Both the position numbers and the translations under genes were made by a program. Shown piece by piece: positions 2,396-60,357 of a DNA stretch of 64,000 nt. This DNA is from an uncultured Candidatus Actinomarina sp. Lineage in GTDB: Bacteria > Actinomycetota > Acidimicrobiia > Actinomarinales > Actinomarinaceae. The number at the start of each line of letters is the position of its first letter. Position 1 is the stretch's first letter. Location of the stretch: NCBI GenBank assembly GCA_902510055.1, contig CABWZY010000003.1, positions 15,067 to 79,066 on the forward strand, given 5' to 3'. The notes beneath the pieces were generated by a model, which worked only from the letters and a program-made list of their open reading frames with translations, searched no databases and had not been told where the DNA came from.

Positions 2396-3598
2396 TTATT
2401 TCTTAATAATTCTAACGAAATTACGTTTTCCTATTTGTAATGTTTTATCGATAAGAGAATCTGAATTAATATCTAAATCTTTATATTTTTCATCATTAAT
2501 TTTAAAAGCTCCTGATGAAATAAGCCTTCTTCCTTCAGAATTAGACTTTATTATGTTGTTATCTAGAAGAAATTTAGGTAAATGTAGTTCAATATTGCTA
2601 TTAATTGCAATATTTTCTATTTCATCTGGAATATTTTTATTTATAGTAATATTTTCAAAAGATTCATACGCTTTTGTTGATGCTTGATCATCAAATAATT
2701 CTGAAATTATTAAATTACCAAGTAGTTTTTTTAAATTAAACGGATTTTCTTTATTTGCTTTAACATCGTTTTTGTAGTTTTGTATCTCTTTAATTTCTAA
2801 ATCTGTAAGCATCAGAAAATAATCCCACATAGTATCATCTGGTATGCTCATTATCTTACCAAATATGGTTTCAGGATTATCAGTAATAGATATATAGTTA
2901 TCATAAGATTGAGACATTTTTTTCTTACCATCAGTACCTATAAGAAGTGGAAAAGTTATAGCAATCTGTGGATCAATATTATAAAACTTTTGAATTTCCC
3001 TTCCAAGCATTAAATTCCAAAGTTGATCATTTCCACCAATTTCTATATCTGATTTTACTGCAACAGAATCATAACCTTGGAAAAGTGGATAAAAGAACTC
3101 TAACAATGATATTGGATTTTTATTATCATACCTGTTAGAAAAATCGTCTCTCTCTAGCATCTGAGCCAAAGTTGTTGATGATGCTAAATGCATCATCTCG
3201 TTAATTGTTAATTTAGATAGCCAGTCTTTATTTGAAACAACTTCTAAGTTATCTTTATGTAAAATAGATTTAATGATTGGAAGAACTCCTTCAGAATTGG
3301 CACCTATACTATCATCATCTAAAACATTTCTTGTTTCTGATTTACCCGATGGGTCTCCAACTTTGGCTGTAAACTCTCCTAAAATTAATACTACTTCATG
3401 TCCATATTCTTGAAATTTTCTTAAAGCTCTTATAACGGCATACCAACCTAATGTAACATCAGGTGCAGTCGGATCAACACCAAGTTTGACTCTCAATTTT
3501 TTCTTAGACTTTAATAAATTTTGGTAATCTTCAAGTGGATTGATTACTGACGAACGCTCTTCTATATATTTCATTTTAATATTAAGGAAAATCTCCAC
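2396..3598 (-). CDS. tyrS: tyrosine--tRNA ligase
   Basis: 400 aa. Class I aaRS with a C-terminal S4-like domain. Position is adjacent to mpg as in Mycobacterium (Rv1688-1689). Confidence 0.88.
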   Translation of the reverse strand: MEIFLNIKMKYIEERSSVINPLEDYQNLLKSKKKLRVKLGVDPTAPDVTLGWYAVIRALRKFQEYGHEVVLILGEFTAKVGDPSGKSETRNVLDDDSIGANSEGVLPIIKSILHKDNLEVVSNKDWLSKLTINEMMHLASSTTLAQMLERDDFSNRYDNKNPISLLEFFYPLFQGYDSVAVKSDIEIGGNDQLWNLMLGREIQKFYNIDPQIAITFPLLIGTDGKKKMSQSYDNYISITDNPETIFGKIMSIPDDTMWDYFLMLTDLEIKEIQNYKNDVKANKENPFNLKKLLGNLIISELFDDQASTKAYESFENITINKNIPDEIENIAINSNIELHLPKFLLDNNIIKSNSEGRRLISSGAFKINDEKYKDLDINSDSLIDKTLQIGKRNFVRIIKK

Positions 3599-4149
3599 AG
3601 ATGTTTATCTCGTGGTTTAGAATTTTTTCTTTGTTTTGCTATTGCTTTATCTGCTGGATGGATTCTTGGTGATAAGTTAATAGGTCCATCTAAAATATTA
3701 TCACCATCATTTTTCAAATTAATTCCTAAGGCTTTTGTTATATTTCCAGGACCGGTTAAATTGTCAGTCTTCATTTTTGTTTTCCTTCTTACTTCTATAT
3801 AATTTTTTCCTAACAATACTTTTCCCGATCTGATTAGTACTGCTTCACAGGAACCCTTTTTAGACGTTAAAAGATATAAACTTTTATTTGATCCATATGA
3901 TTTAAGAATTAATACTGAAGGTGGTCCTAATGGTAAATTTTTTGGTATTTTTCTACTTAATTGAGTAGCTAAAGACATTTGATCTGTATTGGCTCTACCG
4001 AAAGCTTCTGTTTCAGTAATAAGTATCTCAGTAAATTTTCCATTAAAATTTGTTGACAGTCTCATGCCTAATAAATCAACAGCAGCTTTAGAAGATTTTT
4101 GTGATAGAAGTTGATAAACCCTATTATCTAAACCACTAATATCGTTCAT
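3571..4149 (-). CDS. mpg: DNA-3-methyladenine glycosylase (MPG/AAG family)
   Basis: 192 aa. An ETEAF motif (ETEAY in AAG) and a conserved C-terminal block (GPGNITKALGINLK). ATGA overlap with pheT. Synteny with tyrS. Confidence 0.7.
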   Translation of the reverse strand: MNDISGLDNRVYQLLSQKSSKAAVDLLGMRLSTNFNGKFTEILITETEAFGRANTDQMSLATQLSRKIPKNLPLGPPSVLILKSYGSNKSLYLLTSKKGSCEAVLIRSGKVLLGKNYIEVRRKTKMKTDNLTGPGNITKALGINLKNDGDNILDGPINLSPRIHPADKAIAKQRKNSKPRDKHLWRFSLILK

Positions 4150-6509: not shown

Positions 6510-7501
6510 TAAAATTGCCTAAGAAATCTTAAATCGTTATCATAGAAATTTTTTATATGATCAATATTGTGTCTTAACATTGCTAGTCGTTCAACACCAA
6601 CACCAAAAGCAAAGCCTTGAGTACCTTTTTTAAAACCAACTTTTTCAAATACATTAGGATCAACCATTCCACATCCAAGAATTTCTAGCCAGTTATTATC
6701 TTTCCAACTAACTAATACTTCAGCTGAGGGTTCTGTAAATGGAAAAAAGTGAGGAATAAATTTTGTTTTAATATCTTTACCAAAAAATTCTTTAACAAAA
6801 AATTCTAATGTACCTTTTAAATCAGTAAAAGATATTGCATCATCAACAGCTAATCCTTCAATTTGATGAAATACAGGTGAATGTGTTGAATCAAGTTGGT
6901 CTGATCTATATACCCTTCCAGGGGAAACTATATAAATAGGTGGTTTGTTTTCTTGCATGTGTCTTACTTGCACAGTACTTGTCTGCGTCCTCAGCAAGTT
7001 ATCTAATTTTTTATCTAAATACAAGGTATCTGATTCGTACCTTGCTGGATGCCAAATAGGTGTATTTAAAGCATCAAAATTATGCCAAGAAGTTTCGGCT
7101 TCTGGTCCGTGAGCAACTGTATAACCGATAGATGAAAATATTTGTACTACTTCTTCCATCACGGATGAAATTATATGTTCTTTTGTTCCAGTACTTTCAA
7201 ACCAATCGATAGTAATATCTGTAAATTCTTTTTCTTCTCTTTCCTTATATTTAGCTTTAACTAGTTTTAATTTATGAGATTCAATGGCATTTACAATATT
7301 TTCAGTAATTTCTTTTATTTTTTGACCGTACTTTTTTTTATCAAGAGCACTTAAATTTGCAAGGCTTTTACGTTCTTGAGAAATAACAGAATTTCTACCT
7401 AGAAATTCTTTTTGAATATCAATTAATTTATCAAGTGTATCAGTTTCTTCGATAGCTAATAAGAATGAAGAATATATTTTATCTAAATTTAATTCAGCCA
7501 T
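6509..7501 (-). CDS. pheS: phenylalanine--tRNA ligase alpha subunit
   Basis: 330 aa. Class II motifs (FPFTEPSAEV, GFAFGVGVERLAM). Confidence 0.95.
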   Translation of the reverse strand: MAELNLDKIYSSFLLAIEETDTLDKLIDIQKEFLGRNSVISQERKSLANLSALDKKKYGQKIKEITENIVNAIESHKLKLVKAKYKEREEKEFTDITIDWFESTGTKEHIISSVMEEVVQIFSSIGYTVAHGPEAETSWHNFDALNTPIWHPARYESDTLYLDKKLDNLLRTQTSTVQVRHMQENKPPIYIVSPGRVYRSDQLDSTHSPVFHQIEGLAVDDAISFTDLKGTLEFFVKEFFGKDIKTKFIPHFFPFTEPSAEVLVSWKDNNWLEILGCGMVDPNVFEKVGFKKGTQGFAFGVGVERLAMLRHNIDHIKNFYDNDLRFLRQF

Positions 7502-7853
7502 TTATATTTTTTTTTGCTAAATCTACAAGTTTTTTAAATCCTTTTGGGTCATTAATTGCTAAATCAGCAAGAATTTTTCTATCAACCTTTATCTCAGCAT
7601 TATTTAATCCATTAATAAACTTTGAATAAGATAATCCGTGTGTACGTGAAGCAGCATTTATTCTACTAATCCACAATCTTCTAAAATCGCCTTTTTTATC
7701 TTTTCTATGTGTAAACGCATCGGCACCAGCATGCATGACTTGTTCTTTAGCAGCTCTTAATCTCTTACTTCTTGCTCCTGTATAGCCTTTAGCTTTTTTT
7801 AAAACTTTTTTTCTTGATTTCCTACTACTTACAGAAGAATTAATTCTTACCAT
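7494..7853 (-). CDS. rplT: 50S ribosomal protein L20
   Basis: 119 aa. Basic protein in the infC-rpmI-rplT context. Confidence 0.95.
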   Translation of the reverse strand: MVRINSSVSSRKSRKKVLKKAKGYTGARSKRLRAAKEQVMHAGADAFTHRKDKKGDFRRLWISRINAASRTHGLSYSKFINGLNNAEIKVDRKILADLAINDPKGFKKLVDLAKKNING

Positions 7854-8042
7854 TTAACTCAACAACTTTCTTATTTTTTTACTATCACCTTTAGAAGCCT
7901 GTACATCTCTTTTTAGCCTTGCCCATGTGTTGCTACCTTTAGCTAATTTATAGTGTGATGTGTGTGATCTTTTTCTCATAAATTTACCTGTACCAGTAAC
8001 TCTTATTCTTTTTTTCATTCCCTTATGTGTTCTACGTTTCAT
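7854..8042 (-). CDS. rpmI: 50S ribosomal protein L35
   Basis: 62 aa, highly basic. Lies between infC and rplT. Confidence 0.9.
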   Translation of the reverse strand: MKRRTHKGMKKRIRVTGTGKFMRKRSHTSHYKLAKGSNTWARLKRDVQASKGDSKKIRKLLS

Positions 8043-8569
8043 TTCTTTACTCCATTCGGCGCTAATACCATAGTTAAAGATTTGCCATCTGGTTTTGAAG
8101 TTGACTCTACTTCAGCAATATCACTTAGCTTATCTTTGAAGTTATCAAGCACCCTCTGACCAAACTCAGGATGTTCAACTTCTCTTCCTCTAAATCTCAT
8201 TGTAAATTTAACTTTATCGCCTTCACTTAAAAACTTTATAGATTGATTAAGTTTGTTTTGAAAATCATGTGTATCAATTTTAGGTTTTAGCTGTACCTCT
8301 TTAACATTGATCTTTACTTGATTTTTTCTTGATGATTTTGCTTTTTGAGATAACTCGTATTTATATTTTCCATAATCCATAAGTCTTGCAACTGGTGGTT
8401 TACTTTCTGGAGATACCTCAACTAAATCTAATTCCAATTCTTCAGCAACAATTATTGCTTTTTTTAATTCTAATACTCCAATCTGCACTCCATCTGGAGC
8501 AATAACTAGTAATTTTTTAGATTTAATCTCATCATTAATATTAAGTTCCGGTATAAGTACTCCTTCCAT
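8039..8569 (-). CDS. infC: translation initiation factor IF-3
   Basis: 176 aa. IF3 N- and C-domain similarity (PPVARLMDYGKYKYE, RFRGRE). Confidence 0.9.
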   Translation of the reverse strand: MEGVLIPELNINDEIKSKKLLVIAPDGVQIGVLELKKAIIVAEELELDLVEVSPESKPPVARLMDYGKYKYELSQKAKSSRKNQVKINVKEVQLKPKIDTHDFQNKLNQSIKFLSEGDKVKFTMRFRGREVEHPEFGQRVLDNFKDKLSDIAEVESTSKPDGKSLTMVLAPNGVKK

Positions 8570-8594
8570 AAAAAAAACAGCACGAAGCTGTTTT
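8570..8594 (-). terminator. intrinsic terminator-like hairpin (AAAACAGC-UUCGU-GCUGUUUU) plus U-tract, directly abutting the infC AUG
   Basis: On the minus strand, an 8-bp stem and 5-nt loop are followed by U8 that runs straight into the infC start codon. It is 73 nt downstream of the ribH stop. Confidence 0.5.
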
Positions 8595-8666
8595 ACTTAC
8601 TCCACTATTACTCACAGTGGGTGGAACAATGTTCGCTTAATCAATTATATCTTATAATAAATTAAA

Positions 8667-9059
8667 TCAAGCAAATAATAAATTTATAGCTTTAGCTGCT
8701 TCAGAACCTTTGTTCTTATTGTCATCAGCACGTTTTTTTGCTTGTTCTATGTTATGTACATTTAGCACACAGTTTGCAATATAAACAGACTTACTAATTG
8801 ATAAATTAATAAGACCATTAGCTACTGCATTAGAGATATATTCATAATGATCTGTTTCGCCTTTGCATATAACACCAACAGCAATAAAGATCTTATAATC
8901 TTTTGATAAAGTATTAATTTTATATACTATATCCCAACTTCCAGGCACCTTAAAAGTAGAAAGTTCAAAAGAATTATCTATAACTTTATTTATACCATTT
9001 AAGAGATTTTCATTTATCTCTGGATAATATCCGGTATGTACAATAGCTACCTTATTCAT
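8667..9059 (-). CDS. ribH: 6,7-dimethyl-8-ribityllumazine synthase
   Basis: 130 aa. Similar to RibH (VAIV..G, FEYV/HYEYIS core). N-terminus is short. Confidence 0.85.
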   Translation of the reverse strand: MNKVAIVHTGYYPEINENLLNGINKVIDNSFELSTFKVPGSWDIVYKINTLSKDYKIFIAVGVICKGETDHYEYISNAVANGLINLSISKSVYIANCVLNVHNIEQAKKRADDNKNKGSEAAKAINLLFA

Positions 9060-10254
9060 CTGTATACTTATGCCCCATTTTTTGTTTTTTTGTTTCTAAA
9101 TATGACTCATTTTCTTTAGTTTTATTTCCAATAAGAGGTGTACGTTTTGTAATATTTAAACCAAAACCTTCTAGACCAGCTCTTTTTGATGGATTATTAG
9201 TTAAGATGTTCATATTAGTTATTCCTAAATCTCGTAAAATTAAAGCACCAGTACCATAGTCACGTTGATCCATTTTAAATCCTAATTTTAAATTAGCATC
9301 GACAGTATCTTCTCCATCATCTTGTAAGGAATAAGCTTTAATTTTATTCCCTAAACCTATACCTCTGCCTTCATGTCCTCTCATATAAAGCAATACTCCA
9401 GAACCATATTGTGTTATAGCTTTAAAAGCGTTTTCTAATTGAGAACCACAATCACATTTATTAGAAAATAAGACATCACCAGTAAGGCATTCTGAATGGA
9501 CCCTAACCATTGTTTCATTGTTTTGAAGATAATCATTAAATGTTAAGGCTATATGTTCAGTATTATCTATATTGTCTTTATACACATGAGCAGTAAATTC
9601 TCCATACTCAGTTGGTACTTGTGCTTTTGAGACGAAAGATACCATATCGGTTTTCTTGATTCTGTATTCAATTAAATCCTTAATTGTTCCAATAGGTAAA
9701 TTATGTTCTTTAGAAAAATTAATTAAATCATCATAACGCGCCATAGTTCCATCTTCATTAATTATTTCACATATGACTGCAACTGGATAATGCTCTGATA
9801 TCTTACATAAATCTATAGCTGCCTCTGTATGACCAGCCCTACGTAGAACTCCCCCATCCATAGATTGAAGCGGGAAAATGTGACCAGGTACATTAAAATT
9901 ATCTCTAGTTGAATTTTCATTACATAAACCTTTAATAGTTTTATATCTATCTTCAGCAGATATTCCAGTAGTAACACCATCGCCATTTAAGTCAACTGAA
10001 GCAGTAAATTGAGTTTCAGTCTCGTTATTGACACCTTTCATTAGTGATAAATCTAACTTTTGAGATATTTCTGTAGCAATAGGTGCACAGACTAATCCTT
10101 TACCCTTAGTAATCATAAAATTAATATGATCAGGAGTTAAGTATTCAGAAGATACTACAAGGTCACCTTCATTTTCTCTTTCTTCATCATCAATAAGGAT
10201 GATCATTTCTCCAGATTTAAATTTACTTATAATTGTTTCAATATCAGTTATCAT
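9052..10254 (-). CDS. ribBA: bifunctional 3,4-dihydroxy-2-butanone-4-phosphate synthase / GTP cyclohydrolase II
   Basis: 400 aa. DDEERENEGDL (DHBP synthase) and C-terminal GTP cyclohydrolase II cysteines (CDCGSQ). Confidence 0.9.
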   Translation of the reverse strand: MITDIETIISKFKSGEMIILIDDEERENEGDLVVSSEYLTPDHINFMITKGKGLVCAPIATEISQKLDLSLMKGVNNETETQFTASVDLNGDGVTTGISAEDRYKTIKGLCNENSTRDNFNVPGHIFPLQSMDGGVLRRAGHTEAAIDLCKISEHYPVAVICEIINEDGTMARYDDLINFSKEHNLPIGTIKDLIEYRIKKTDMVSFVSKAQVPTEYGEFTAHVYKDNIDNTEHIALTFNDYLQNNETMVRVHSECLTGDVLFSNKCDCGSQLENAFKAITQYGSGVLLYMRGHEGRGIGLGNKIKAYSLQDDGEDTVDANLKLGFKMDQRDYGTGALILRDLGITNMNILTNNPSKRAGLEGFGLNITKRTPLIGNKTKENESYLETKKQKMGHKYTDE

Positions 10255-10822: not shown

Positions 10823-11838
10823 TATTTTCTAGTATAAATAACTAATTCATTATCTTTAAGGAGAAATTTATTCTCTTCTTTATACGCTTCGTTAAATCCA
10901 CTTTGACTTAGGTAGTCCATAGATAAACCATTATTAATAATATTTTTTGAGCGAAATTCATAAAATTTAAGATAATTATTATTTATTAATAACAATTCAT
11001 GTATGTACTTACCACCCTCAACAAGAACAGACCTACAATTATTTTTAATTAATGTATTTTCTAACTCTTTTATTGAGTTTGTTTCAACAAATAAATATTC
11101 ATTAAATTTTTCATTTTTTTTAATTTCAATAGGTACTTCTGATCCCCACCAAACAACTTTTAACGGTTTATTTGTTGAATCTTTTAATTCATCATTCCTA
11201 ATATTTAAAACTGGTTTATCAATAATGAAGGTATTTTTACCAACCAATATAGCGTCACTAGTTGCTCTTAAAATATGAGAGATGTCAAGAGAAATATCGT
11301 TCGTTATATATCTATAATCAGAATCAGAATCGTATATAAAATTATTGTTTGAAATTCCAATTTTTCCAACATATGTTATAGGTAAGGATGTAGTGCTGGA
11401 ATTATAATATGGATTAATAAGTTGGTTAATTCCGTTTTCTATAGATACGTTTATATCATTGTCTACTAATAGTTCATAACTTTTACCAAATGTTCTAATG
11501 TCCATATCAATATCTCCTATGATAATATTTTTAATATTTGTATTTAATAATTCTTTTGCACATGATGGTGAAGTATCCTCATGGAAACATGGCTCTAATG
11601 TAACATATAGGTAATCACTATCTTCAATCTTCGATTCTTTAATTAGAGCAACTTCAGCATGATCTTGACCTTTTTTTAAATGATGAGTTTTATGTTTTAA
11701 ATTCATATTTTTATCAAACAATGCAGCTCCAACCTTTGGATTTGGATTGGGGTTGCTCTTTAATGCTTCTAAAGCAGCAATTGACATACCCCTAGAGATG
11801 TTTAAATAATTTAAATTATTAACCAAAAATTGCTCCAC
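10822..11838 (-). CDS. ribD: bifunctional riboflavin deaminase/reductase
   Basis: 338 aa. Cytidine/dCMP deaminase zinc motif HAEV...LEPC..H....C, then a reductase domain. Confidence 0.8.
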   Translation of the reverse strand: MEQFLVNNLNYLNISRGMSIAALEALKSNPNPNPKVGAALFDKNMNLKHKTHHLKKGQDHAEVALIKESKIEDSDYLYVTLEPCFHEDTSPSCAKELLNTNIKNIIIGDIDMDIRTFGKSYELLVDNDINVSIENGINQLINPYYNSSTTSLPITYVGKIGISNNNFIYDSDSDYRYITNDISLDISHILRATSDAILVGKNTFIIDKPVLNIRNDELKDSTNKPLKVVWWGSEVPIEIKKNEKFNEYLFVETNSIKELENTLIKNNCRSVLVEGGKYIHELLLINNNYLKFYEFRSKNIINNGLSMDYLSQSGFNEAYKEENKFLLKDNELVIYTRK

Positions 11839-12430
11839 CTTGTACTGATATATCTACATTAAGCTCTTTTAGTTCTCCTAACATACTATCTGTAACACCA
11901 CCATCTATCATAATTTCACCTTCATAGTTTGGAAATGTTCGTTTAAATTCCTTAACTCTTTCTACTGGGGAGACAATAGGTGTTTGATTTGAAAAACCAG
12001 GCATCACACAAAGTAATAAAATATAATGAATATTAAATATTTTATTATTAATAAAACTTTTTAAAATATTTAAATCAGAAGTTCCTAAAACCCCGATACC
12101 TGTTTTGATATTGCTTTGCTTTCTCATTTCAGTTAGAAATTTATTAATTGAATTTGATTCGACATGAAGAGATGCTCTGGAAATATTGTTACTTTGAGTT
12201 AACAGTTTATTTAATATCTCTGGGAAATCATTAGTCATAAAATGCATATCAATTAATAAATTGAAATCTTCTATGAGTTTAAATACAATTTCATGTGAGA
12301 TTCCATATGTTTGACAAAATTCATTATCACCTATATCTACATGAACATAATCATATTTATCTTTTTTCATTTTAAGTTCTTCAAATAGAGTTAGTTGATC
12401 TGCAGCTAGTATGCTTGCTGAAATTTTCAT
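11819..12430 (-). CDS. rpe: ribulose-phosphate 3-epimerase
   Basis: 203 aa. SASILAAD.., HVDIGDNEF and DMHFM motifs match Rpe. Actinobacterial order fmt-(sun)-rpe-ribD. Confidence 0.8.
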   Translation of the reverse strand: MKISASILAADQLTLFEELKMKKDKYDYVHVDIGDNEFCQTYGISHEIVFKLIEDFNLLIDMHFMTNDFPEILNKLLTQSNNISRASLHVESNSINKFLTEMRKQSNIKTGIGVLGTSDLNILKSFINNKIFNIHYILLLCVMPGFSNQTPIVSPVERVKEFKRTFPNYEGEIMIDGGVTDSMLGELKELNVDISVQGGAIFG

Positions 12431-13260
12431 CTAATACCTCTTAAGTAATCTACTACAGGCATTCTATTTTTTCCTTCAGGAGTTATTTCAATAGGATAAA
12501 TATAATCATCTAAAATTTTAAAATCTAAACCATGGCTTTTCAAAGAATATTTATGGATTTTGAAGACTTTATTATTATGAATATAATATGCGGGCCCAAT
12601 TATATCAAAAGCTCTAATTTTTTTTAAAGCTACTTCATTAGTGTCATCATTTATACATAGATCATTCTTTTCAAATTTTTTAGTAAAAGTTTCATTTGAA
12701 TCATTCTGATTTTCTAGCGGATTTGTAATATTAATTATTTCATCGTAAGAATTAATAAAGTCTTCAAAAATTAAGTTATATATATCAGATGCATAGTGAG
12801 TTTCTAATAAGTTCATTTCTTTAGAGAACATTACTGGACCAGCATCAACATACTTATTAATTTTGAATATTGTATAACCAGTTTTAGTTTCTCCATTTAG
12901 AATTTGTGTCTCAACAGGTGAAGGTCCTTTGTATTTTGGCAATAAACTCAAATGCAGGTTATAAATATCTTTGTTATTGTTTAAAAAATTATCACTGAAG
13001 ATATTTTTAAAACTGACACAAAAAGCATTTACCATATCTTCATATATATCGTTTTGATTAAAATATTTAATATTGATACTATTTTTTATACAGAATAATT
13101 CAATATCGTTTGGTTTTAATTTTTTTCCTCTACCGGCTTCTACGGGTTTTGTTGTCACAACTGTTATATCTTTATTTTTATTATATAAAAATTTCAGATA
13201 GTTAGTACTTCTTTCATCAGAACCAAAAAAATAATTAAACATCTTTACCTGGAAAACCAT
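12427..13260 (-). CDS. fmt: methionyl-tRNA formyltransferase
   Basis: 277 aa. HLSLLPKYKGPSPV motif (HASLLPRWRG in E. coli Fmt). Lies downstream of def. Confidence 0.8.
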   Translation of the reverse strand: MVFQVKMFNYFFGSDERSTNYLKFLYNKNKDITVVTTKPVEAGRGKKLKPNDIELFCIKNSINIKYFNQNDIYEDMVNAFCVSFKNIFSDNFLNNNKDIYNLHLSLLPKYKGPSPVETQILNGETKTGYTIFKINKYVDAGPVMFSKEMNLLETHYASDIYNLIFEDFINSYDEIINITNPLENQNDSNETFTKKFEKNDLCINDDTNEVALKKIRAFDIIGPAYYIHNNKVFKIHKYSLKSHGLDFKILDDYIYPIEITPEGKNRMPVVDYLRGIR

Positions 13261-13730: not shown

Positions 13731-15098
13731 TCAAATATTTCTTATTTTAATTGGTTCAAACTTACTTACATCAGAAAATAAACTCATTATCTTATTGTAA
13801 TTAAGATTATTACTTAAAATTAATCTGATTTCATACTGAAATAAGTCTTTACTAATTTTAGGACCTAATATATAGTCTTTAAAATTATTATTAATGTATT
13901 CATCTTTTGTTATAAAAGAAAAAACTTTAATATTTATATTTGGACCGTAATCAACACGTTCTTGAATCTCTTTATCTGCTAATTTATTAATATTATCAAT
14001 AGACAATAAATCATTAAAATTTTCTTCTTTGGTAGATAGCATTGTTACTTCGATATCATTATTTTTACAAAATTCTAACTGTTTCAATAAAGAAATTAAT
14101 CTTATTGAGTTAAGCGTATTGTTGGTTGATATTTTAGGATTAAATAGTAGAAACATATTATTTTCTTTTTCATCAAAATTTTCAGTAAAATTAAAGTCAG
14201 AAAGTTTATCTTTTACTATATCAGAGAATGTAAACGGTTTTATAAGACTACTATCAAATTTAGTTCGGAATATATTAATACATTCTTCTAAATTATTTCC
14301 ATATAAGTAAGTTACTTTATTATCAATATCTAATTTATTAATATGCTGAATAGAGTTAAAAACATCAAGCGCTGGAAATTTGTTATAAAATATAAAATTT
14401 CCACCAAAAATCATATTCTTATAAACTGCTAATTCTACAATGTTCATAGAATTTAATTTTGGAAGATTGAAAGCGATGTTATTAGTATCATAAAAATGAA
14501 AAATAGTATCATCTTCTAATTCAAAATAGTTGAAATTGTTAGAAAGAATAATTATGTTTTTAACTTTTAACTCTTTAGATAGAATTGTTTCAATCTCATT
14601 TTTACCACCAGTTTTTTGAAAAAAATCAATAATTATATTTTCATTAGTTAATCTATTATTTAATTTCATACATTGTTCTAATGAAGAAACTATAAATATA
14701 TTTTTATGATTATCTGAAACGTTATCTTTCAATGTTTCTAAGTTCATTAGCTTATATTTTTTGTCATTAATTTTATTTTGCTTTATAAATGTATCTAAAT
14801 TAAAAATATTTGAAAGCAACATGCCAATGTTAAGATAGTTTGCAATCGCAAGTGTTTTTATATAATTAAATTGCCTTTTAGATAAGTTATATACCAATTT
14901 CTTAATTTCATTAGTTTTTATATTATTTGATAATTTAACATTAGTTTCGACAACAACTGCATTATATTTTTTATTCCTAAAAATAACTTCTACGATTGAA
15001 CCTATCTCTATTTTATTTGTAAACTTTTTAGGTACTTTATACGTAAATTGAATAAATTTATATGTATTGTTATAGATTAATTCAACATTGATATACAC
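13731..15098 (-). CDS. priA: PriA-like primosomal protein N' with degenerate helicase core
   Basis: 455 aa. N-terminal 50 aa fit the PriA 3'-DNA-binding domain pattern. Lies between coaBC and def as in Actinobacteria. I found no GxGKT Walker A, no DExH motif and no Cys4 zinc finger by eye. Confidence 0.55.
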   Translation of the reverse strand: MYINVELIYNNTYKFIQFTYKVPKKFTNKIEIGSIVEVIFRNKKYNAVVVETNVKLSNNIKTNEIKKLVYNLSKRQFNYIKTLAIANYLNIGMLLSNIFNLDTFIKQNKINDKKYKLMNLETLKDNVSDNHKNIFIVSSLEQCMKLNNRLTNENIIIDFFQKTGGKNEIETILSKELKVKNIIILSNNFNYFELEDDTIFHFYDTNNIAFNLPKLNSMNIVELAVYKNMIFGGNFIFYNKFPALDVFNSIQHINKLDIDNKVTYLYGNNLEECINIFRTKFDSSLIKPFTFSDIVKDKLSDFNFTENFDEKENNMFLLFNPKISTNNTLNSIRLISLLKQLEFCKNNDIEVTMLSTKEENFNDLLSIDNINKLADKEIQERVDYGPNINIKVFSFITKDEYINNNFKDYILGPKISKDLFQYEIRLILSNNLNYNKIMSLFSDVSKFEPIKIRNI

Positions 15099-19626: not shown

Positions 19627-22170
19627 TTAAATATGTTTAGTAAACTCTTGAGTTACATACTCAATACATTTATTATCATCATATTCTGACGGTCCACCAC
19701 CAATTGACAAAACTGGATCTTTTGAAGCACCTCCGCCGTAAAGTTTTGATGCGTTACTTACAATTTCTGATACATCAAATTTATCTAAACTTTCAGAGTT
19801 TTTGCATCCAACAATAACAGTTTTAGTTTCAATCTTGGCTATTAGGAAAACAAAGTCAAGGTTATGAGATTTTATAGACTGAACGGCTATATCTTTAGCT
19901 TCAGTAGAATCAGAAACGTTAACTTTACCTATATAAGTAATTAAATTATTAATCTCGTGTCCTTCGTTAATGATTCTATTTAGTTCCTTACCGCTTTCTT
20001 GTTTGTTGTAAGTTTCTAACTTTTTTTTAATATCTTCATAAGTTTCCATAAAAATTTTTAATTTTTCAGGAACTTGCTCAATATTAGTTTGTAGCAATTC
20101 GCTCACTGATTTATATGATTTATAAGCATTACTCATAAAACTATAAGCTTGTTCACCAGATAACATTTCAATTCTTCTTAAATTAGAACCAATAGATGAT
20201 TCGTTTAAAAGTACTATCAAACCAATTTCATTAGAATTATGAACATGTGTACCACCACATAACTCTTTAGAGAAGTTACCTATATTAACTACCCGTACAT
20301 CATCATCGTATTTATCACCAAAAAAAGCTAACGCACCTTCATCTTTTGCTTTTTTTATATCCATAACATTTGTATCAACTGATAAATCTTTGTAAATATT
20401 ATCGTTACTCATTTGAAAAATCTCTTCCAGTTCCTCTTTTTTTACTTTTTCTGTATGGCTAAAATCAAATCGAAATTTTCCAGGAGCTACGTGAGAACCA
20501 GCTTGGGCAACATGTTCTCCTAATATGTTTCTTAATGACGAGTGAACAATATGAGCAGCTGTGTGACTTTTTGAAACAGAACTTCTGAAAGATTTATCAA
20601 CATTTAATGTAATCTTATCTCCTATTTTTATATTATTATTTTCAATTAGCAACCCAGTTGAACCTGTGTCTGATTGAATAACATCTTTTACATCAATTAT
20701 TTTGTCATTAAATTGTATTGAACCTTTATCAGATATTTGCCCACCTGCTTCGTAATAAAAAGGATTTTGATTAGTAAAAATGACACAATTTTTATCTGCT
20801 TCTTCTATATGAAAAACTTCTGATTCTATAGATATTGAATCGTAACCAACAAATTTGTTAATATCCACACCTTTAATTTTATTGCCTGTTTCAGATTTTA
20901 TACCTGTATTTGATTTTTTTCTATGTTCATCAAGTAAGATATTAAATTTATCAATGTTAATAGATAGCCCATGTTCGAGTGCTGATTCTTGTGTTAATTC
21001 AAATGGAAAACCAAATGTTTCAAATAAATAAAACGCATCTTTTTCATCAATATAGTTTTTATTACTAAGCATATTGGTAATTTCTTGATTACCTTTAACA
21101 AGAGTATTTTGAAATAATTCTTCTTCTTTTTTGAACAGTTTAATTATTTTTGATTTGTTTTGGTCTAACTCTGGGTATGTACTTTTATAATCATCAACTA
21201 CTATTTTAATTAAAAAGTCAAGAGACTTTAGCTCATCAGTTAACCTATACATTGCTCTGGCAGCTCTTCTAATGATTCTTCTTAATATATAACCTCTTCC
21301 TTCATTAGTTGGTACAACTCCATCAGATATCATAAAGGTTGATGACTTTACATGGTCAAGGACTATTCTTTCATATTTTTTATCATTTTTTTGTATAACT
21401 TTATTAAGTTCTTCATACATAGAACTAAATGTATCGATCTCAAAAGGTGAATCTTTTTCTTGTAAAACCATAGCCATTCTCTCTAAACCCATTCCAGTAT
21501 CTATATTTTTAGCTGGTAAATCATCTATAACTTGATAAGGTTCGTCTTGAATTGATTCCATAAATACTAAGTTCCATATTTCAATAAACCTATCTTCACC
21601 TCCTCCAATTGGACCTCCTTCTTCACCAAATTCCTTTCCTCTGTCAATAAATATTTCAGAACAAGGACCACATGGCCCTGGAATATTCATATGCCAGAAA
21701 TTATCTTTATCCCCTTTTTGAATACGATCTTCAGGAATACCTATTTTTTTTCTCCAGATATTATAAGATTCTTCATCATTTTTATAAACTGTGAACCAAA
21801 GGTCTTTTTTATCAACACCTAATTCATTAGTTATAAATTCATATGACAACCTCATTGCATCCTCTTTGAAATAATTATCAATACTAAAATTTCCTAACAT
21901 TTCAAAAAATGTTAGATGTCTATCTGTATCTCCTACTATATCTATATCAACGGTCCTGATACATTTTTGAGATGAAGTTAAATTATTATGAGGCGGTTCT
22001 TTAGATCCCATAAAAAATTCTTTTAAAGGAACCATTCCAGCTGCTGTGAATAATAATGTCTCATCGTGTGGAATTAATGAAGATGATTCTAAAATTTTGT
22101 GATCGTTATCTTCAAAATATTTTAAGAATTTACTTCTTATTTGATCGCTATTCATCTTCTTCCCACTCAA
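19627..22170 (-). CDS. alaS: alanine--tRNA ligase
   Basis: 847 aa. Class II catalytic, editing (HTAAH..) and C-terminal DHHA1-like domains. Confidence 0.95.
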   Translation of the reverse strand: MSGKKMNSDQIRSKFLKYFEDNDHKILESSSLIPHDETLLFTAAGMVPLKEFFMGSKEPPHNNLTSSQKCIRTVDIDIVGDTDRHLTFFEMLGNFSIDNYFKEDAMRLSYEFITNELGVDKKDLWFTVYKNDEESYNIWRKKIGIPEDRIQKGDKDNFWHMNIPGPCGPCSEIFIDRGKEFGEEGGPIGGGEDRFIEIWNLVFMESIQDEPYQVIDDLPAKNIDTGMGLERMAMVLQEKDSPFEIDTFSSMYEELNKVIQKNDKKYERIVLDHVKSSTFMISDGVVPTNEGRGYILRRIIRRAARAMYRLTDELKSLDFLIKIVVDDYKSTYPELDQNKSKIIKLFKKEEELFQNTLVKGNQEITNMLSNKNYIDEKDAFYLFETFGFPFELTQESALEHGLSINIDKFNILLDEHRKKSNTGIKSETGNKIKGVDINKFVGYDSISIESEVFHIEEADKNCVIFTNQNPFYYEAGGQISDKGSIQFNDKIIDVKDVIQSDTGSTGLLIENNNIKIGDKITLNVDKSFRSSVSKSHTAAHIVHSSLRNILGEHVAQAGSHVAPGKFRFDFSHTEKVKKEELEEIFQMSNDNIYKDLSVDTNVMDIKKAKDEGALAFFGDKYDDDVRVVNIGNFSKELCGGTHVHNSNEIGLIVLLNESSIGSNLRRIEMLSGEQAYSFMSNAYKSYKSVSELLQTNIEQVPEKLKIFMETYEDIKKKLETYNKQESGKELNRIINEGHEINNLITYIGKVNVSDSTEAKDIAVQSIKSHNLDFVFLIAKIETKTVIVGCKNSESLDKFDVSEIVSNASKLYGGGASKDPVLSIGGGPSEYDDNKCIEYVTQEFTKHI

Positions 22171-23851
22171 CTTTTATGTTATATTCAAGTAAATCTTCGT
22201 CTGATAATTTAGCTGGCGCATTTGTTAACGGATCTAATCCCGATTGTGTTTTAGGAAATGGTATTACATCCCGAATAGATTCTGCATTCACCATTTCAGC
22301 TATTAATCTATCAATGCCTATTGCAAAACCTGCATGTTGTGGAGAACCATATGATAAAGCCTCAATAAACCAACCAAAACGTTCCTCTATTTCATTATCA
22401 GATAATCCCCATTTACTTAAAACAATAGTCTGCATATTTGGATCATTTATTCTTTGTGATCCTGAACCGAGTTCTACGCCGTTAAGAACAAGGTCATAAT
22501 GTAATGCAGTAGCATTTTCTGGGTTAATATTAAATTCCTTTGTATTTTTAGGTGCAGTAAATGGGTGATGAGAAGGTTGCAATTCACCATTTTCGTATTC
22601 AAAATATGGAAATTCATCTATCCAGACAAATTCATATTGATCTTTTTTTTCTTTTTCATAAAGCTTTCTTCGGAGTGTATCAAGAATAGAAGCTGTTTCT
22701 GTTGAATTGCCTGCTTGAAATATTACTGTACTATTGTTATATTTTTTTATTTTGTTTATCTCGTTGTCTTTTAATATATTTGTTAGGGGTCCGGATATTT
22801 CATTATCAGTGATTTTAAACCACCCTAAACCAGCGCTTCCTTCTTCTTTAACAAGCTTATCCAGATTATCTATTTCAGATCTAGTTAATAGTTTATCTAA
22901 GATAAAACCACGTACTGAGCCTTTATTGTTAATGCTATTTTTTATGAAAGAAATTTCAGTGTCTATAAATATGTCTGTTAAATCTGTAATTGTTTCAGTT
23001 ATTCTTAAATCAGGTTTATCAGTACCGTATAGCATTAATGACTCTTGATATGAAAGTTTTTTGAATGGAGTTTTTATCTGAATAGAATATACGGATTTAA
23101 GTAGATACTTCATAGTTTTTTCAATTAAATTTTGAACAGTTTGAGGATCGGCATTAGCTATTTCAATATCTAATTGTGTAAATTCAGGTTGTCTATCTTT
23201 TCTCGAATCCTCGTCGCGGTAGCATTTTGCTATTTGATAATAATTTTTAAGACCTGACAACATAAATAATTGCTTATACATTTGGGGAGACTGCGGTAAC
23301 GCGTAGAAATTACCTGGTGATTTTCTTGAAGGTACAACAAAATCTTTAGCACCTTCTGGTGTTGATTTGATTAATGTTGGTGTGTCAATTTCATCTATAC
23401 CAAGTTTGTTCATTGCTTCTCTAATACTTTTAAATGTTTTAGATCTAGCTAAAATATTATTTTTCATTTCATTTCTTCTTATGTCCAAATATCGATGTTT
23501 TAGTCTTATCTGCTCATCTACGTCAATACCATCATCGATTTGAAATGGAAGAACTTTACTCTGAGAGATAACATTTAAGGTTTCTAACTCTATCTCAATA
23601 TCTCCATATTCCTCATCTGAATTTATATTATCTTTTTGACGTTTAATAAGACTTCCTGATACTGATACATAATATTCATTTTTTATGCTTTCAAAATCAT
23701 CAGGTTTATCTGTTACGACTTGTACTTTAGAGTCGTGATCTCTCAATTCAAAAAAAAGTAATCCACCATGATGTCTAATGGTGTCTACCCAACCTCTTAT
23801 ATCATCTACTTCATCATTATTTTTTACATTACTTATATCTGATATATACAT
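22148..23851 (-). CDS. aspS: aspartate--tRNA ligase
   Basis: 567 aa. OB-fold N-domain, QSPQ motif, FAIGIDRL motif 3. Confidence 0.95.
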   Translation of the reverse strand: MYISDISNVKNNDEVDDIRGWVDTIRHHGGLLFFELRDHDSKVQVVTDKPDDFESIKNEYYVSVSGSLIKRQKDNINSDEEYGDIEIELETLNVISQSKVLPFQIDDGIDVDEQIRLKHRYLDIRRNEMKNNILARSKTFKSIREAMNKLGIDEIDTPTLIKSTPEGAKDFVVPSRKSPGNFYALPQSPQMYKQLFMLSGLKNYYQIAKCYRDEDSRKDRQPEFTQLDIEIANADPQTVQNLIEKTMKYLLKSVYSIQIKTPFKKLSYQESLMLYGTDKPDLRITETITDLTDIFIDTEISFIKNSINNKGSVRGFILDKLLTRSEIDNLDKLVKEEGSAGLGWFKITDNEISGPLTNILKDNEINKIKKYNNSTVIFQAGNSTETASILDTLRRKLYEKEKKDQYEFVWIDEFPYFEYENGELQPSHHPFTAPKNTKEFNINPENATALHYDLVLNGVELGSGSQRINDPNMQTIVLSKWGLSDNEIEERFGWFIEALSYGSPQHAGFAIGIDRLIAEMVNAESIRDVIPFPKTQSGLDPLTNAPAKLSDEDLLEYNIKVEWEEDE

Positions 23852-23853
23852 AT

Positions 23854-24804
23854 TTATTCTAAATCCATTATTCTATCAATACCGAATGCAACACCAAATC
23901 CATTTATTTCTTTGCCTCCAAGTAAACTAGACAGTCTATCATACTGACCACCGCCACCTAAAGCATCCTGGCTACCGGTGCTTTCATTGGGTACGATTTC
24001 AAAAGTAAAATCATTATAATAATCTAAACCTCTAACTAATAATGGATTTTCTTTATATGAGATTTTTGCATCAGAAATCATTTTAATTATTTTTTCATAG
24101 TTATCATTTGATTTGTCGGATCTATATTCAGATAACTTAGGCGCGTTTACTAATATTTCTGTATCGTTTTGGTTTTTAGAATCAAGAATCCTTAGTGGGT
24201 TACTTTCTAATCTTTTTAATGAGTCTTCAGATAAATTATCTTTGTAATCTTTTAGATACTTTACAAGGACTTGATTGTATTTAATCCTATCTTCACTATT
24301 ACCAATTGAATTAATTTCGAATGTAAAATTTGAATCTACAGGTATGCAGGACTCTAAGAAGTCGTTACTTAATTGTATAATTGAAAATACTTCATTTAAT
24401 GAGTCACTTTTGTAACCTAATGTTTCTGCGCCTACTTGATGAAATTCTCTATACCTACCTTTTTGCGGTCTTTCGTAGCGAAACATTTGATCTGAATAAT
24501 AATAATTTTTAGTTTTGGAATATTTCTTTTCAATATGATGTCTCACAATTCCTGCTGTTCCTTCTGGTCTTAATACTAAGTTTCTACCCTTTTTATCAGG
24601 AAATGTATACATTTGTTTAGTAACAATATCAGTATGTTCACCAACTGATCTTGTAAAAAGTTCTTCTTTTTCCAAAGTCGGTATTTTAATGTAATTAAAC
24701 TCATATTTTTTAGCTACGATATGAAAGGTATTAACAATTTCTAAATATCTTTTTGCCTCATCACCTTCGATAGCTCTTGTACCTCTAACACCATCAATCA
24801 TCAA
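23854..24804 (-). CDS. hisS: histidine--tRNA ligase, catalytic domain only (no anticodon-binding domain)
   Basis: 316 aa. Motif 1/2 (LRPEGTAGIVR) and motif 3 (GGGGQYDRL...GFGVAFGIDRI) present. The ORF stops right after motif 3, 2 nt before the aspS start. Confidence 0.85.
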   Translation of the reverse strand: MMIDGVRGTRAIEGDEAKRYLEIVNTFHIVAKKYEFNYIKIPTLEKEELFTRSVGEHTDIVTKQMYTFPDKKGRNLVLRPEGTAGIVRHHIEKKYSKTKNYYYSDQMFRYERPQKGRYREFHQVGAETLGYKSDSLNEVFSIIQLSNDFLESCIPVDSNFTFEINSIGNSEDRIKYNQVLVKYLKDYKDNLSEDSLKRLESNPLRILDSKNQNDTEILVNAPKLSEYRSDKSNDNYEKIIKMISDAKISYKENPLLVRGLDYYNDFTFEIVPNESTGSQDALGGGGQYDRLSSLLGGKEINGFGVAFGIDRIMDLE

Positions 24805-25420
24805 TAAATTCCTTTAAATAGTCATTATAGTTAAGAATATTAGAGACAGTGTCACTATCACCATGACCGGGGAAAACTTCCAAACCTTTATCAAATGATA
24901 AGAACACACTGTTGACTGAATCTTTCATTTCTTCATAACTACCACTAAACAAATCAGTTCTACCAATACCTTGAGAAAAGACAAAATCACCTGTAAAAAC
25001 TACTCCTACTTCGACGAATTCATATGATATGCTACCTTTTGTATGTCCAGGATTTTTATATACCTTTACGACATCATTATTAAACGAATCAATATTTAAT
25101 AATGGTCCTTTATACTCTTCAATTAATAGTTCTTCGTTAGTAAATTGACTAAGTTGTTCTTGAGGATTTCTCGCTAAAAATTCATCATCCATATTTAGAT
25201 AAATATTACCATCTACTTTAGGCGCCCCTAAAGCGTGGTCATAATGCCCGTGAGTTAATAAATAGCCACCAACGGATAAATTCCTATCTTTTATATATTC
25301 AATAGCTGGCTCTACATCCGGAGGTAAATCTATTACATAGCATATATCAATTTGCGGATCTGGTTGAACTACATAACAGTTGGAAGTAGTAAAGCTAGTG
25401 AAAGTTTCAATAGTGTTCAT
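24794..25420 (-). CDS. MBL-fold metallo-hydrolase (glyoxalase II-like)
   Basis: 208 aa. THGHYDH metal-binding motif. Same position as Mtb Rv2581c between relA and hisS. Confidence 0.7.
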   Translation of the reverse strand: MNTIETFTSFTTSNCYVVQPDPQIDICYVIDLPPDVEPAIEYIKDRNLSVGGYLLTHGHYDHALGAPKVDGNIYLNMDDEFLARNPQEQLSQFTNEELLIEEYKGPLLNIDSFNNDVVKVYKNPGHTKGSISYEFVEVGVVFTGDFVFSQGIGRTDLFSGSYEEMKDSVNSVFLSFDKGLEVFPGHGDSDTVSNILNYNDYLKEFIDD

Positions 25421-37261: not shown

Positions 37262-37742
37262 CTACTTCTTCTGTATAAACATCAGAAATAATTGCTTTAG
37301 TAAAAGCATCAAATTCAATTATTGATTTTTCTTTAGGTGGATTGTTGTGGTCATAAACAATTACAGTCCAAATTGGTTTTAATATTTTTGGTGGCAAATT
37401 AAAATTAAAAGTAAGCGCTATAGAATAATATCCAATAGAGTGAGGTATATATTTACCTATATATTCAATAATCTCTTTTTGTTCTATTATTTTATTATTT
37501 TCGATAAACTTTATAAATAAAGATAACATAAGCAACAATACGGACGCCGGATATAAATTAATCCATGTATTCAAATATGTTATTATGAATGAAATAACAG
37601 ACAAGGTAATAAATATATAAAAATAACGGCTTCGAATTACAGGGTTCGGAATTTCATAACTTCCAACTGCAAGAGAATTTAGGTCATCTGGTACTAATTC
37701 TTTCTCAGCAGCATCAAGTTCAATATTTATACCATCTTTCAT
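37251..37742 (-). CDS. membrane protein (two TM helices plus a ~90-aa soluble domain; bacterial PH-like?)
   Basis: 163 aa. Overlaps both neighbours by 1-10 nt. Confidence 0.4.
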   Translation of the reverse strand: MKDGINIELDAAEKELVPDDLNSLAVGSYEIPNPVIRSRYFYIFITLSVISFIITYLNTWINLYPASVLLLMLSLFIKFIENNKIIEQKEIIEYIGKYIPHSIGYYSIALTFNFNLPPKILKPIWTVIVYDHNNPPKEKSIIEFDAFTKAIISDVYTEEVVDA

Positions 37743-39673
37743 CAGAGTTTAAATACTGGTTCTTTTAATATATTTTTTATTGATTTCATACCCTCACTGA
37801 TTTCAATATCTTTAGTTTCGATACCATCAATGTAGTTAATTGCTATTGTTTTATTTTTAGCATCATTTTCACCGATAATTAGAGTTATAGGAATTTTTGA
37901 CTTTTTAGAATCATGAATTTTTTCTCCTAACCTTATATTTCTATCATCAATATTTATCCTGTAATTACTTAATTTTTTAGAAATTGTCTTTAGATAATCT
38001 TCTACATTTCCAATTGTTAATATGTTTATTTGAGTAGGAGCAAGCCAACCAGGGAAAAATCCAGCATAATGTTCAGTAAGAATCCCTGTAAATCTTTCAA
38101 TAGATCCTAGAAGAGCTCGATGAATCATTACAGGTGTAACTTTTTTATTATCAGAATTTATATATTCTAACGAGAAATTATCTGGTTGAGCAAAATCAAT
38201 TTGAATTGTTGTTAGTTGCCATCTTCTACCAATTGCATCTTTTACGTGTAAGTCAATTTTAGGTCCATAAAAAGCTCCTTCACCATGTGCAATCTTATAA
38301 GAAATTTTTTGTACGTTTAATGCATCCTCTAAACTTTGAGTAGCAATTTCCCAATCTTTATCTTCACCTATTGAGTCTTCTGGTCTAGTTGACAAATCTG
38401 CTTCAATATTTTCAAAACCAAAACAATTAAGAAGTTTTATTGAGAATGTTAATAAATTTAATATTTCATTGTTTAAATCTTCAGTAGTTGTAAATATATG
38501 TGCGTCGTCTTGTGTAAACCCTCTAGCTCTTAATAGACCATGAAGGACCCCTGTTTTTTCCATTCTATATACTGACCCAAGCTCGAAATATCTTATAGGT
38601 AATTCTCTATAAGATCTTATATCATTTTTATATACAAGAATATGAAAAGGACAGTTCATAGGTTTTAAATAATATTCATCATCTGCATTGTTATCTTTTA
38701 ATGCTGGATACATGCCCTCCTTATAGTGAGATAGATGTCCTGATGTTTCCCATAATATTGACCTACCTATATGTGGAGTGTTAACAAAATCATAACCATT
38801 TTTAATATGAGCTTTTTTACTAAAAGATTCTATTTCATTTCTAAGAATTGCTCCGTTTGGTTGCCATAAAAATTGACCTGGACCTAACTCATCGGCAGTA
38901 GTGAATAATTTTAATTCCTTACCTATTTTTCTATGGTCTCTTTTTTCAGCCTCTTCTTGACGTGTAAGATATTTGTTTAAATCATCTTTCGTAAACCAAG
39001 ATGTTCCATAAATTCTTTGCAATTGCGGATTTGTTTCTTTACCTCTCCAATAAGCTCCAGCAACTTTTGTTAATTTAAAATGTTTGAGATATCCAGTATT
39101 AGGAATATGTGGACCTTTACATAAATCTTTAAATTTATCATTTTTATAAATGGATACTTCATTATTGGCAACTCCCTCTTCTTTATCAGCAGTATTTATT
39201 AACTCTTTCTTAAATTTTTGATCTTTAAAAAGTTCTGTTGCTTTTTCAGTACTTGTATATTCTTTTATAAATGTTTGTTTTTTACTAATAATATTATTCA
39301 TTTCATTTTCAATGCTTGATAAATCATCTTCGCTTATATTGTTTTCGAATAAGAAATCATAATAGAATCCATCTTCAATTGCTGGTCCTACTCCATACTG
39401 TGTATTTGGATATATATTAATCACAGCTTGAGCAAGAATATGAGCTGATGAATGTCTTAAGATTTCTAAAGCAGTTTGATCTTTTAGTGTAAATATTTTA
39501 CATTTAACGTCACTAGATATTGTCTGGTGAAGATCTGTCAGTATTCCATCAATTTCAATACAGATTGCATCTTTTGCTAAGTTTCTTCCTATATCTGAAG
39601 CAAGTTCATAACCAGTAATTTCTTTTTCATATGTTCTTACTGATTTATCAGGAAGTGTAATTCTTATACTCAT
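37742..39673 (-). CDS. thrS: threonine--tRNA ligase
   Basis: 643 aa. TGS and N2 editing domains, class II core and anticodon-binding domain. Confidence 0.95.
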   Translation of the reverse strand: MSIRITLPDKSVRTYEKEITGYELASDIGRNLAKDAICIEIDGILTDLHQTISSDVKCKIFTLKDQTALEILRHSSAHILAQAVINIYPNTQYGVGPAIEDGFYYDFLFENNISEDDLSSIENEMNNIISKKQTFIKEYTSTEKATELFKDQKFKKELINTADKEEGVANNEVSIYKNDKFKDLCKGPHIPNTGYLKHFKLTKVAGAYWRGKETNPQLQRIYGTSWFTKDDLNKYLTRQEEAEKRDHRKIGKELKLFTTADELGPGQFLWQPNGAILRNEIESFSKKAHIKNGYDFVNTPHIGRSILWETSGHLSHYKEGMYPALKDNNADDEYYLKPMNCPFHILVYKNDIRSYRELPIRYFELGSVYRMEKTGVLHGLLRARGFTQDDAHIFTTTEDLNNEILNLLTFSIKLLNCFGFENIEADLSTRPEDSIGEDKDWEIATQSLEDALNVQKISYKIAHGEGAFYGPKIDLHVKDAIGRRWQLTTIQIDFAQPDNFSLEYINSDNKKVTPVMIHRALLGSIERFTGILTEHYAGFFPGWLAPTQINILTIGNVEDYLKTISKKLSNYRINIDDRNIRLGEKIHDSKKSKIPITLIIGENDAKNKTIAINYIDGIETKDIEISEGMKSIKNILKEPVFKL

Positions 39674-59299: not shown

Positions 59300-59306
59300 A
59301 ATTTTG

Positions 59307-60268: not shown

Positions 60269-60282
60269 AATTATAAGCCTTG

Positions 60283-60353: not shown

Positions 60354-60357
60354 AATG

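Follow-up and report, generated by a model that had tools for sequence, protein, structure and literature searches.

A histidyl-tRNA synthetase without its anticodon-binding domain in Candidatus Actinomarina

The housekeeping histidyl-tRNA synthetase (HisRS) of Candidatus Actinomarina, an uncultured ocean actinobacterium, is very probably a core-only enzyme that recognises its tRNA at the acceptor end without inspecting the anticodon. Its gene, hisS, lies in a 64,000-nucleotide stretch of DNA (contig CABWZY010000003.1 of assembly GCA_902510055.1, positions 15,067 to 79,066 of the forward strand; hereafter the window) that has a G+C content of about 29% and contains a 16S rRNA gene and the beginning of a 23S gene. 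The encoded protein retains the catalytic core and the HisRS-specific insertion domain; the linker and the entire C-terminal anticodon-binding domain are absent. It also appears likely that a whole abundant, free-living order of ocean bacteria uses such an anticodon-blind, core-only enzyme as its sole HisRS, that the loss of the domain was coupled to the replacement of R287 (Escherichia coli numbering) by Q or E, and that, given the conflicting gene trees, the domain-less allele had two origins or passed from one lineage to another.

As adaptors, aminoacyl-tRNA synthetases enforce the genetic code, and an anticodon-binding domain is, to our knowledge, considered an almost universal accessory of these enzymes. 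Among those of class IIa, HisRS relies least on the anticodon. A literature search found no report of a natural housekeeping HisRS devoid of its anticodon-binding domain, and the two Actinomarinales genome papers do not mention one.

The hisS gene ends with the catalytic core

The hisS open reading frame (ORF) counts 316 amino acids (aa) from a TTG at 24804 and 315 aa from the ATG at 24801, its second codon. The true start is probably 24801, because all relatives begin at that ATG (MIDGVRG..., 315 aa); translation from this position implies an 8-nt overlap with the stop of the upstream gene. The protein ends in GFGVAFGIDRIMDLE, followed by a TAA at 23854-23856, and only 5 residues (I plus MDLE) lie between the arginine of class II motif 3 and the stop. 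The spacer between this stop and the ATG of aspS (23849-23851) is 2 nt long ('AT'); there is therefore no space for a HisRS C-terminal domain. The first-pass annotation had described exactly this arrangement, a 316-aa ORF that ends just past motif 3 with aspS 2 nt further on and no room for an anticodon-binding domain, and the sequence confirms it: Pfam detects no PF03129 match in the window HisRS, and a tblastn search with nine HisRS C-terminal domains found no remnant in any frame of the window.

The extent of the missing part can be read from three alignments. The window HisRS aligns to residues 6-313 of the 424 residues of E. coli HisRS (1KMM; E = 1.6e-69), with its end corresponding to E. 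coli position ~316; it covers positions 3-311 of the 406-position hisS profile (TIGR00442), and PF13393 (tRNA-synt_His) is matched by residues 13-312 (E = 2.4e-32). What is absent amounts to ~100 C-terminal residues, that is the linker and the whole anticodon-binding domain of ~95 aa. Divergence of an AT-rich sequence does not explain the missing match, since PF03129, a class IIa anticodon-binding domain of the same type, is found in the threonyl-tRNA synthetase (ThrRS) encoded in the same window, and because this ThrRS retains the domain the loss is specific to HisRS. The beta subunit of the phenylalanyl-tRNA synthetase (PheRS) retains its own anticodon-binding domain as well.

Assignment to HisRS rather than HisZ

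A short HisRS-like protein without an anticodon-binding domain could also be a HisZ-like regulatory subunit of ATP phosphoribosyltransferase, a possibility raised by the first-pass annotation; the length of ~315 aa, a similar domain composition and a weak match to the HisZ profile all fit such a protein. HisZ functions only together with the short form of HisG. Alignment to the two families, however, separates them clearly: the hisS equivalog TIGR00442 passes its cut-off of 286.75 with 331.7 bits, despite a quarter of the profile being unmatched, whereas the hisZ equivalog TIGR00443 reaches 115.6 bits against a cut-off of 271.65, and all other HisZ models remain far under their cut-offs. The closest solved structures by sequence are bacterial HisRS, with HisZ much weaker (E = 7e-10). 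There is no hisG in the window, and ATP phosphoribosyltransferase (K00765) and the other histidine biosynthesis genes tested occur in 0 of 84 complete Actinomarina genomes (supplement of bioRxiv 10.64898/2026.04.03.716425), which excludes a HisZ role. Together with the intact catalytic residues and the structural comparison described below, these results make the HisZ reading highly improbable. Histidine auxotrophy of the Actinomarinales is reported in both published genome surveys (PMC7771536; bioRxiv 10.64898/2026.04.03.716425), and tRNAs for all 20 amino acids are encoded in 84 of the 84 complete Actinomarina genomes (bioRxiv 10.64898/2026.04.03.716425). Since histidine is imported and tRNA-His must be charged, a HisRS is required.

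The short form is conserved in the ancestral hisS slot

The closest genome to the window is a single-cell genome of an uncultured Candidatus Actinomarina, in which HisRS is 95% identical, the neighbouring genes are 94-98% identical and the gene order is the same. Each of the five Actinomarinales species representatives recovered from GTDB genomes encodes 315 aa, with a stop position that three further metagenomic loci share. A search of 5.8 billion protein clusters yielded 73 clusters with 55-96% identity, some of which stand for hundreds of assemblies; three are shorter fragments, the others measure 313-321 aa, and none contains PF03129. Public sources record no name for these proteins. The next matches (44-48% identity) are 416-aa proteins with PF03129 or proteins of 391 aa. 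Among the best 150 representatives from 1.84 billion clusters, a single domain-less HisRS was found (P0055), and it belongs to the Actinomarina clade. Four other short proteins (P0201, P0152, P0252 and P0114) were considered and rejected as domain-less HisRS, since each is a fragment that stops within the C-terminal domain or where it begins. The complete and intact hisS genes of the other taxa recovered encode 397-434 aa, including those of eight Acidimicrobiia at ~408 aa.

The order secD-secF-relA-MBL hydrolase-hisS-aspS(-alaS-ruvX...), where MBL denotes the metallo-beta-lactamase fold, is common to Actinomarina, to two more distant Actinomarinales lineages with domain-less hisS (loci L038, 313 aa, and L040, 321 aa) and to Acidimicrobiia with full-length hisS. 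Its position therefore makes the short gene an ortholog of a normal hisS, as had been proposed for this slot. In L040, queA, relA and aspS are in fragments (3577-3780, 7230-9083 and 10959-12643), with aspS split into three ORFs, while hisS is intact; the broken genes are probably assembly or sequencing errors and not pseudogenes.

An unusual length alone may point to an artefact or a pseudogene, created by a frameshift, a premature stop or a misassembly. Against this, the same end is found in nine independent loci drawn from single-cell genomes, metagenome-assembled genomes and metagenomes, and in 71 protein clusters of 313-321 aa that span 56-96% identity; in all nine loci aspS follows closely, beginning 2-8 nt past the hisS stop or overlapping it. 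A sequencing error was also considered at first, and such an origin is almost certainly wrong given a short form conserved across independent assemblies and evolving under constraint. The Nei-Gojobori ratio of nonsynonymous to synonymous divergence (dN/dS) of hisS is 0.085-0.117 (about 0.1) in pairs with unsaturated synonymous divergence, compared with 0.10-0.18 for the neighbouring and certainly essential aspS in the same pairs. To judge from these ratios, the domain-less hisS is under strong purifying selection and is conserved like an essential gene; tRNA-His is therefore probably recognised by its acceptor end alone.

Structure and conserved residues

An AlphaFold 2 (AF2) model built from a 29-sequence alignment (pLDDT, the predicted local distance difference test, 85; pTM, the predicted template-modelling score, 0.85) comprises the complete catalytic fold together with the helical insertion domain, and its last element is the helix that follows motif 3. 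In Foldseek comparisons the model matches Thermus thermophilus HisRS (1adj; tRNA complex 4rdx) with a template-modelling (TM) score of 0.83 and 36-39% identity, as against TM 0.65-0.67 and 20-22% identity for HisZ structures. The T. thermophilus catalytic domain extends to Gly320 and its C-terminal domain spans Leu331-Gly421 (PMC4357726). The insertion domain is modelled as helices at residues 170-185, 193-198, 203-208, 212-218 and 224-227. The positions of the motifs and of the neighbouring genes are collected in Table 1.

Table 1. Location of hisS, its functional elements and related genes in the window
Feature	Position	Strand	Evidence or remark
hisS (HisRS: catalytic core and insertion domain only)	23854..24804	-	ORF list, TIGR00442, E. 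coli alignment
Class II motif 2 and loop, FRYERPQKGRYREFHQVGAE, residues 108-127	24424..24483	-	Residues invariant in domain-less clade
HisRS-specific helical insertion domain, ~residues 170-228	24121..24297	-	AF2 helices; alignment to 1adj and 4rdx; limits from PMC4357726
HisA motif RGLDYY, residues 258-263, with catalytic arginine (E. coli R259)	24016..24033	-	Invariant in domain-less and full-length sets
HisB motif GGGGQYD, residues 283-289	23938..23958	-	Q287 in place of the GGRYD arginine
Class II motif 3 GFGVAFGIDRI, residues 302-312	23869..23901	-	Invariant R311; sequence, E. coli alignment
aspS, 567 aa	22148..23851	-	ORF list; begins 2 nt past hisS stop
MBL-fold (Lactamase_B) hydrolase, upstream of hisS	24794..25420	-	Stop overlaps hisS start; in relA-MBL-hisS-aspS block
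ThrRS, 643 aa, internal control	37742..39673	-	PF03129 detected at residues 550-634

Conservation was compared between 72 domain-less sequences and 141 diverse full-length HisRS. In the full-length set, about 47 positions reach a conservation of 95% or more; the domain-less clade keeps all but two of them. The kept set includes the RPEGT signature, the motif 2 region (E. coli R113, E115, R116, Q118, R121, R123, Q127 and E131, all with equivalents in the window protein) and R259, Y263, Y264, G285, G286, Y288 and R311; the equivalents of P44, R113, R121, R259, Y263, Y264 and R311 are invariant in all 72 domain-less sequences, and D289 of the HisB signature is also retained in the window HisRS. 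Motif 2 contributes residues for the binding of ATP and histidine and for contacts with G-1, G1 and C73 (roles from PMC4357726). T. thermophilus HisRS in complex with tRNA holds G-1 and G1 with an N-terminal arginine and the counterparts of R116 and R123, and the 3' strand with those of Q118, K119 and R121, and its insertion domain clamps the acceptor stem (PMC4357726). All of these acceptor-stem contact elements are present in the window HisRS, where the conserved residues for recognition of G-1, G1 and C73 are R112, Q114 and R119 of the motif 2 loop (window numbering), the N-terminal R7 and, as glycine of the G-1 pocket, the G of DKKGR.

Two positions that are 94-98% conserved in full-length HisRS are altered. 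E. coli E66 is replaced by Q (window Q64, codon 24613-24615) in the domain-less and in the 391-aa forms alike. The position of E. coli R287 (window Q287, codon 23944-23946) is the sole strongly conserved one whose substitution tracks the loss of the domain: R occupies it in 94% of the 141 full-length HisRS, none of which has Q, and in 4 of 4 391-aa forms, whereas 94% of the 72 domain-less sequences have Q and some of the rest E; Q or E is confined to the domain-less forms. R287 is suspected to contact the lost domain or the linker; neither the T. thermophilus complex paper nor a paper on HARS disease variants mentions a role for it.

A shrunken domain in a sister lineage

A 391-aa hisS occupies the same slot on a Tara contig with 29% G+C (L042, 437-1612), and proteins P0083, P0091 and P0197 are of the same form. 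The L042 protein has a shrunken C-terminal domain of ~75-85 aa with a PF03129 score of 19.1 bits, below the cut-off of 21. The 391-aa form shares with the window HisRS the slot, the AT-rich streamlined background and clade-specific N-terminal features; unlike the window HisRS it has this weak remnant of the domain, keeps the R of GGRYD, and carries asparagine where E. coli has R116 and G120, two positions that do not vary otherwise. It appears to be an intermediate or a different route of decay, and the in-place decay of its domain suggests erosion over relocation.

The phylogenetic position of this form depends on the gene considered. Trees were built by neighbour-joining from few taxa, and the window segment 19627-24804 was set against L038, L040 and L042. 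In the hisS tree the domain-less forms all fall together, with L042 outside the group (98% bootstrap), and they have three small insertions in common, whereas in aspS plus alaS (100% bootstrap) and in all ten flanking genes L042 is nearer to Actinomarina than L038 and L040 are. The conflict would be explained either by two parallel losses combined with long-branch effects, by exchange of the hisS allele, or by accelerated evolution of L042.

Recognition of tRNA-His by a core-only enzyme

The major determinants of tRNA-His are the G-1:C73 pair and the 5' phosphate, the anticodon contributes weakly, and mini- and microhelices that carry these determinants serve well as substrates (PMC4357726, PMC9976931). 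G-1 tRNAs with a threonine anticodon are charged by E. coli HisRS (PMC5389517). Since the anticodon is weak and G-1:C73 is major in the HisRS known so far, acceptor-end-only recognition is the most likely mode of action of the Actinomarina enzyme.

A scenario can be outlined as follows. The gene descends in place from a normal actinobacterial hisS of ~408 aa, with complete deletion of the C-terminal domain and the linker. The 315-aa core with its insertion domain would activate histidine and transfer it to tRNA-His, selecting the tRNA through G-1 paired with C73 and through the 5' phosphate, by means of the motif 2 loop, the insertion domain and the N-terminal arginine. The enzyme is probably still a dimer, because motif 1 is intact and the G-1 pocket of the T. 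thermophilus enzyme is completed by the partner subunit. Loss of the domain may have been tolerated or even favoured by genome streamlining in a slow-growing cell, and such an oligotroph might simply tolerate a slower enzyme.

Several points weigh against this interpretation. Compared with the complete enzyme, the engineered E. coli core loses efficiency ~170-fold: the catalytic domain alone has ~0.6% of the aminoacylation efficiency (PMC4357726, PMC9976931), with specificity for tRNA-His retained. No compensating positive charge is found in the natural core (net charge -3.9 versus -2.7). R287, an arginine in nearly all HisRS, is replaced. The T. thermophilus G-1 pocket depends on a glycine-containing loop of the second subunit (PMC4357726). 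There is no tRNA-His gene in the window, whose tRNA genes are for Val, Cys and Gly only, or in 12 related loci, and G-1:C73 is assumed. Finally, tblastn detected no second full-length hisS and no stand-alone domain in 222 kb of Actinomarinales DNA, which is weak evidence that the short gene is the only one.

The low efficiency of the isolated E. coli domain and the lack of electrostatic compensation could instead indicate that a separately encoded tRNA-binding protein, be it a split-off anticodon domain or another factor, assists the core in trans; split and fused forms of synthetases are known in other families. Such a helper is nevertheless unlikely: no sequence resembling a HisRS C-terminal domain occurs in the window or in the 222 kb, the 391-aa sister form shows gradual decay of the domain in place, and a streamlined genome of 1.1 Mb is an improbable home for an extra gene serving that purpose.

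Another alternative is a second, full-length HisRS that would do the housekeeping, the window copy then being a paralog-like protein with a different role, for instance a regulatory one or that of an amino-acid ligase for an acceptor other than tRNA; copy number is known here from 222 kb. Domain-less second copies of synthetases do exist, for example CysRS* (a cysteinyl-tRNA synthetase, CysRS) in the Desulfobacterales (PMC5389517). We nonetheless rate this explanation as very unlikely. The window gene sits in the ancestral hisS slot, which holds the full-length gene in relatives; it retains all residues that contact the tRNA acceptor and evolves as slowly as aspS; and among the closest homologs there is no other AT-rich HisRS of actinobacterial type, the 391-aa forms, the sole near relatives with a C-terminal domain, residing in the same slot of their own lineage. 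The proposal of the first-pass annotation, a hisS reduced to the catalytic core with the anticodon-binding domain deleted, is borne out, with the insertion domain as part of what is kept, by the genomic slot, the TIGR00442 score, the modelled structure, the conserved residues and the purifying selection, and the core-only housekeeping enzyme remains our preferred interpretation.

Searches for the cognate tRNA and tRNA genes of the window

A scan of metagenomes with a degenerate tRNA-His pattern combined with an AT-rich upstream flank retrieved at least 120 stretches, none of which could be attributed to Actinomarina. In a tetranucleotide ranking, true Actinomarinales controls score 0.70-0.85 and the best candidate contigs 0.64-0.67, and a comparison of the tRNAs on the candidate contigs with those of the window revealed no link. 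With its gene order cysS-tRNA cluster-tig-clpP-clpX, the best candidate without an encoded CCA (L090) resembles an AT-rich gammaproteobacterium and was discarded. Another contig (L087, Ga0172368_10000972) carries a tRNA-Gly(GCC) that is 89% identical to that of the window and also lacks an encoded CCA; it is possibly derived from another streamlined actinobacterium and not from Actinomarina.

The tRNA genes of the window, Val-GAC, Cys-GCA and Gly-GCC (59306-59380 and 60282-60430, minus strand), have no encoded 3' CCA, and a CCA-adding enzyme is therefore required. The discriminator base is followed by CAA or CAT, and the gap between the Cys and Gly genes is 3 nt.

Other features of the window

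Gene overlaps of 4-30 nt are common throughout the window. As listed, alaS (TTG at 22170) and the end of aspS have 23 nt in common (22148-22170); since alaS matches in three related loci (L002-L004) begin at residues 5-6, the true start may lie a few codons downstream. The aspS ortholog in L038 has the Pfam domains tRNA_anti-codon, tRNA-synt_2 and GAD. Elsewhere on the minus strand, two adjacent paralogs at 43477-45426 and 45472-46584 contain the N-terminal and the C-terminal DUF3048 domain, the longer one with two additional peptidoglycan-binding (PG_binding_1) repeats. A 455-aa ORF (13731-15098, minus strand) has the PriA 3' DNA-binding domain as its sole Pfam match at E <= 1e-5, with no helicase domain at that threshold; on this domain content, it may be a reduced PriA.

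Implications and comparison with known systems

Should the proposed mode of recognition be correct, a living cell can define histidine identity by reading the acceptor stem (the 'operational RNA code') alone, and the Actinomarina enzyme would be a natural counterpart of laboratory minimal synthetases. It would offer an evolved minimal class II enzyme for comparison with engineered fragments, with respect to a recovery of efficiency or dimerisation and to the role of R287. It would also illustrate streamlining inside an essential gene, with about 280 nt saved and a decayed intermediate extant in a sister lineage. Actinomarina is among the most abundant bacterial groups of the surface ocean, and the case is therefore not marginal.

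Compared with canonical bacterial HisRS (TIGR00442; 1KMM, 1ADJ/4RDX), the window HisRS has the same motifs 1-3, HisA motif, insertion domain, ligand and acceptor residues and genomic slot. Canonical enzymes have the linker, PF03129, GGRYD and E66, whereas the window HisRS has neither linker nor PF03129 and carries GGQYD and Q in the respective positions. HisZ (TIGR00443; Lactococcus lactis 1Z7M) is likewise derived from HisRS, ~300-330 aa long and free of an anticodon-binding domain. HisZ, however, is a paralog that exists beside a real HisRS, partners with HisG and does not aminoacylate, in contrast with a window gene that has intact catalytic residues and belongs to a lineage without hisG.

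The engineered E. coli fragment (~1-320; Augustine and Francklyn 1997, as cited in PMC4357726) has nearly the same boundaries as the window HisRS, and its remaining, specific charging of tRNA-His shows that such an architecture can function (PMC4357726). It is a laboratory construct, whereas the Actinomarina core is natural, fixed across an order and presumably the sole HisRS. The E. coli catalytic fragment is reportedly monomeric. The CysRS* of the Desulfobacterales (PMC5389517) resembles the window HisRS in the natural loss of its anticodon-binding domain and relies on the acceptor stem. CysRS*, however, is a class I enzyme and an extra copy that serves a special tRNA beside a normal CysRS, whereas the Actinomarina gene occupies the orthologous position of the housekeeping gene itself.

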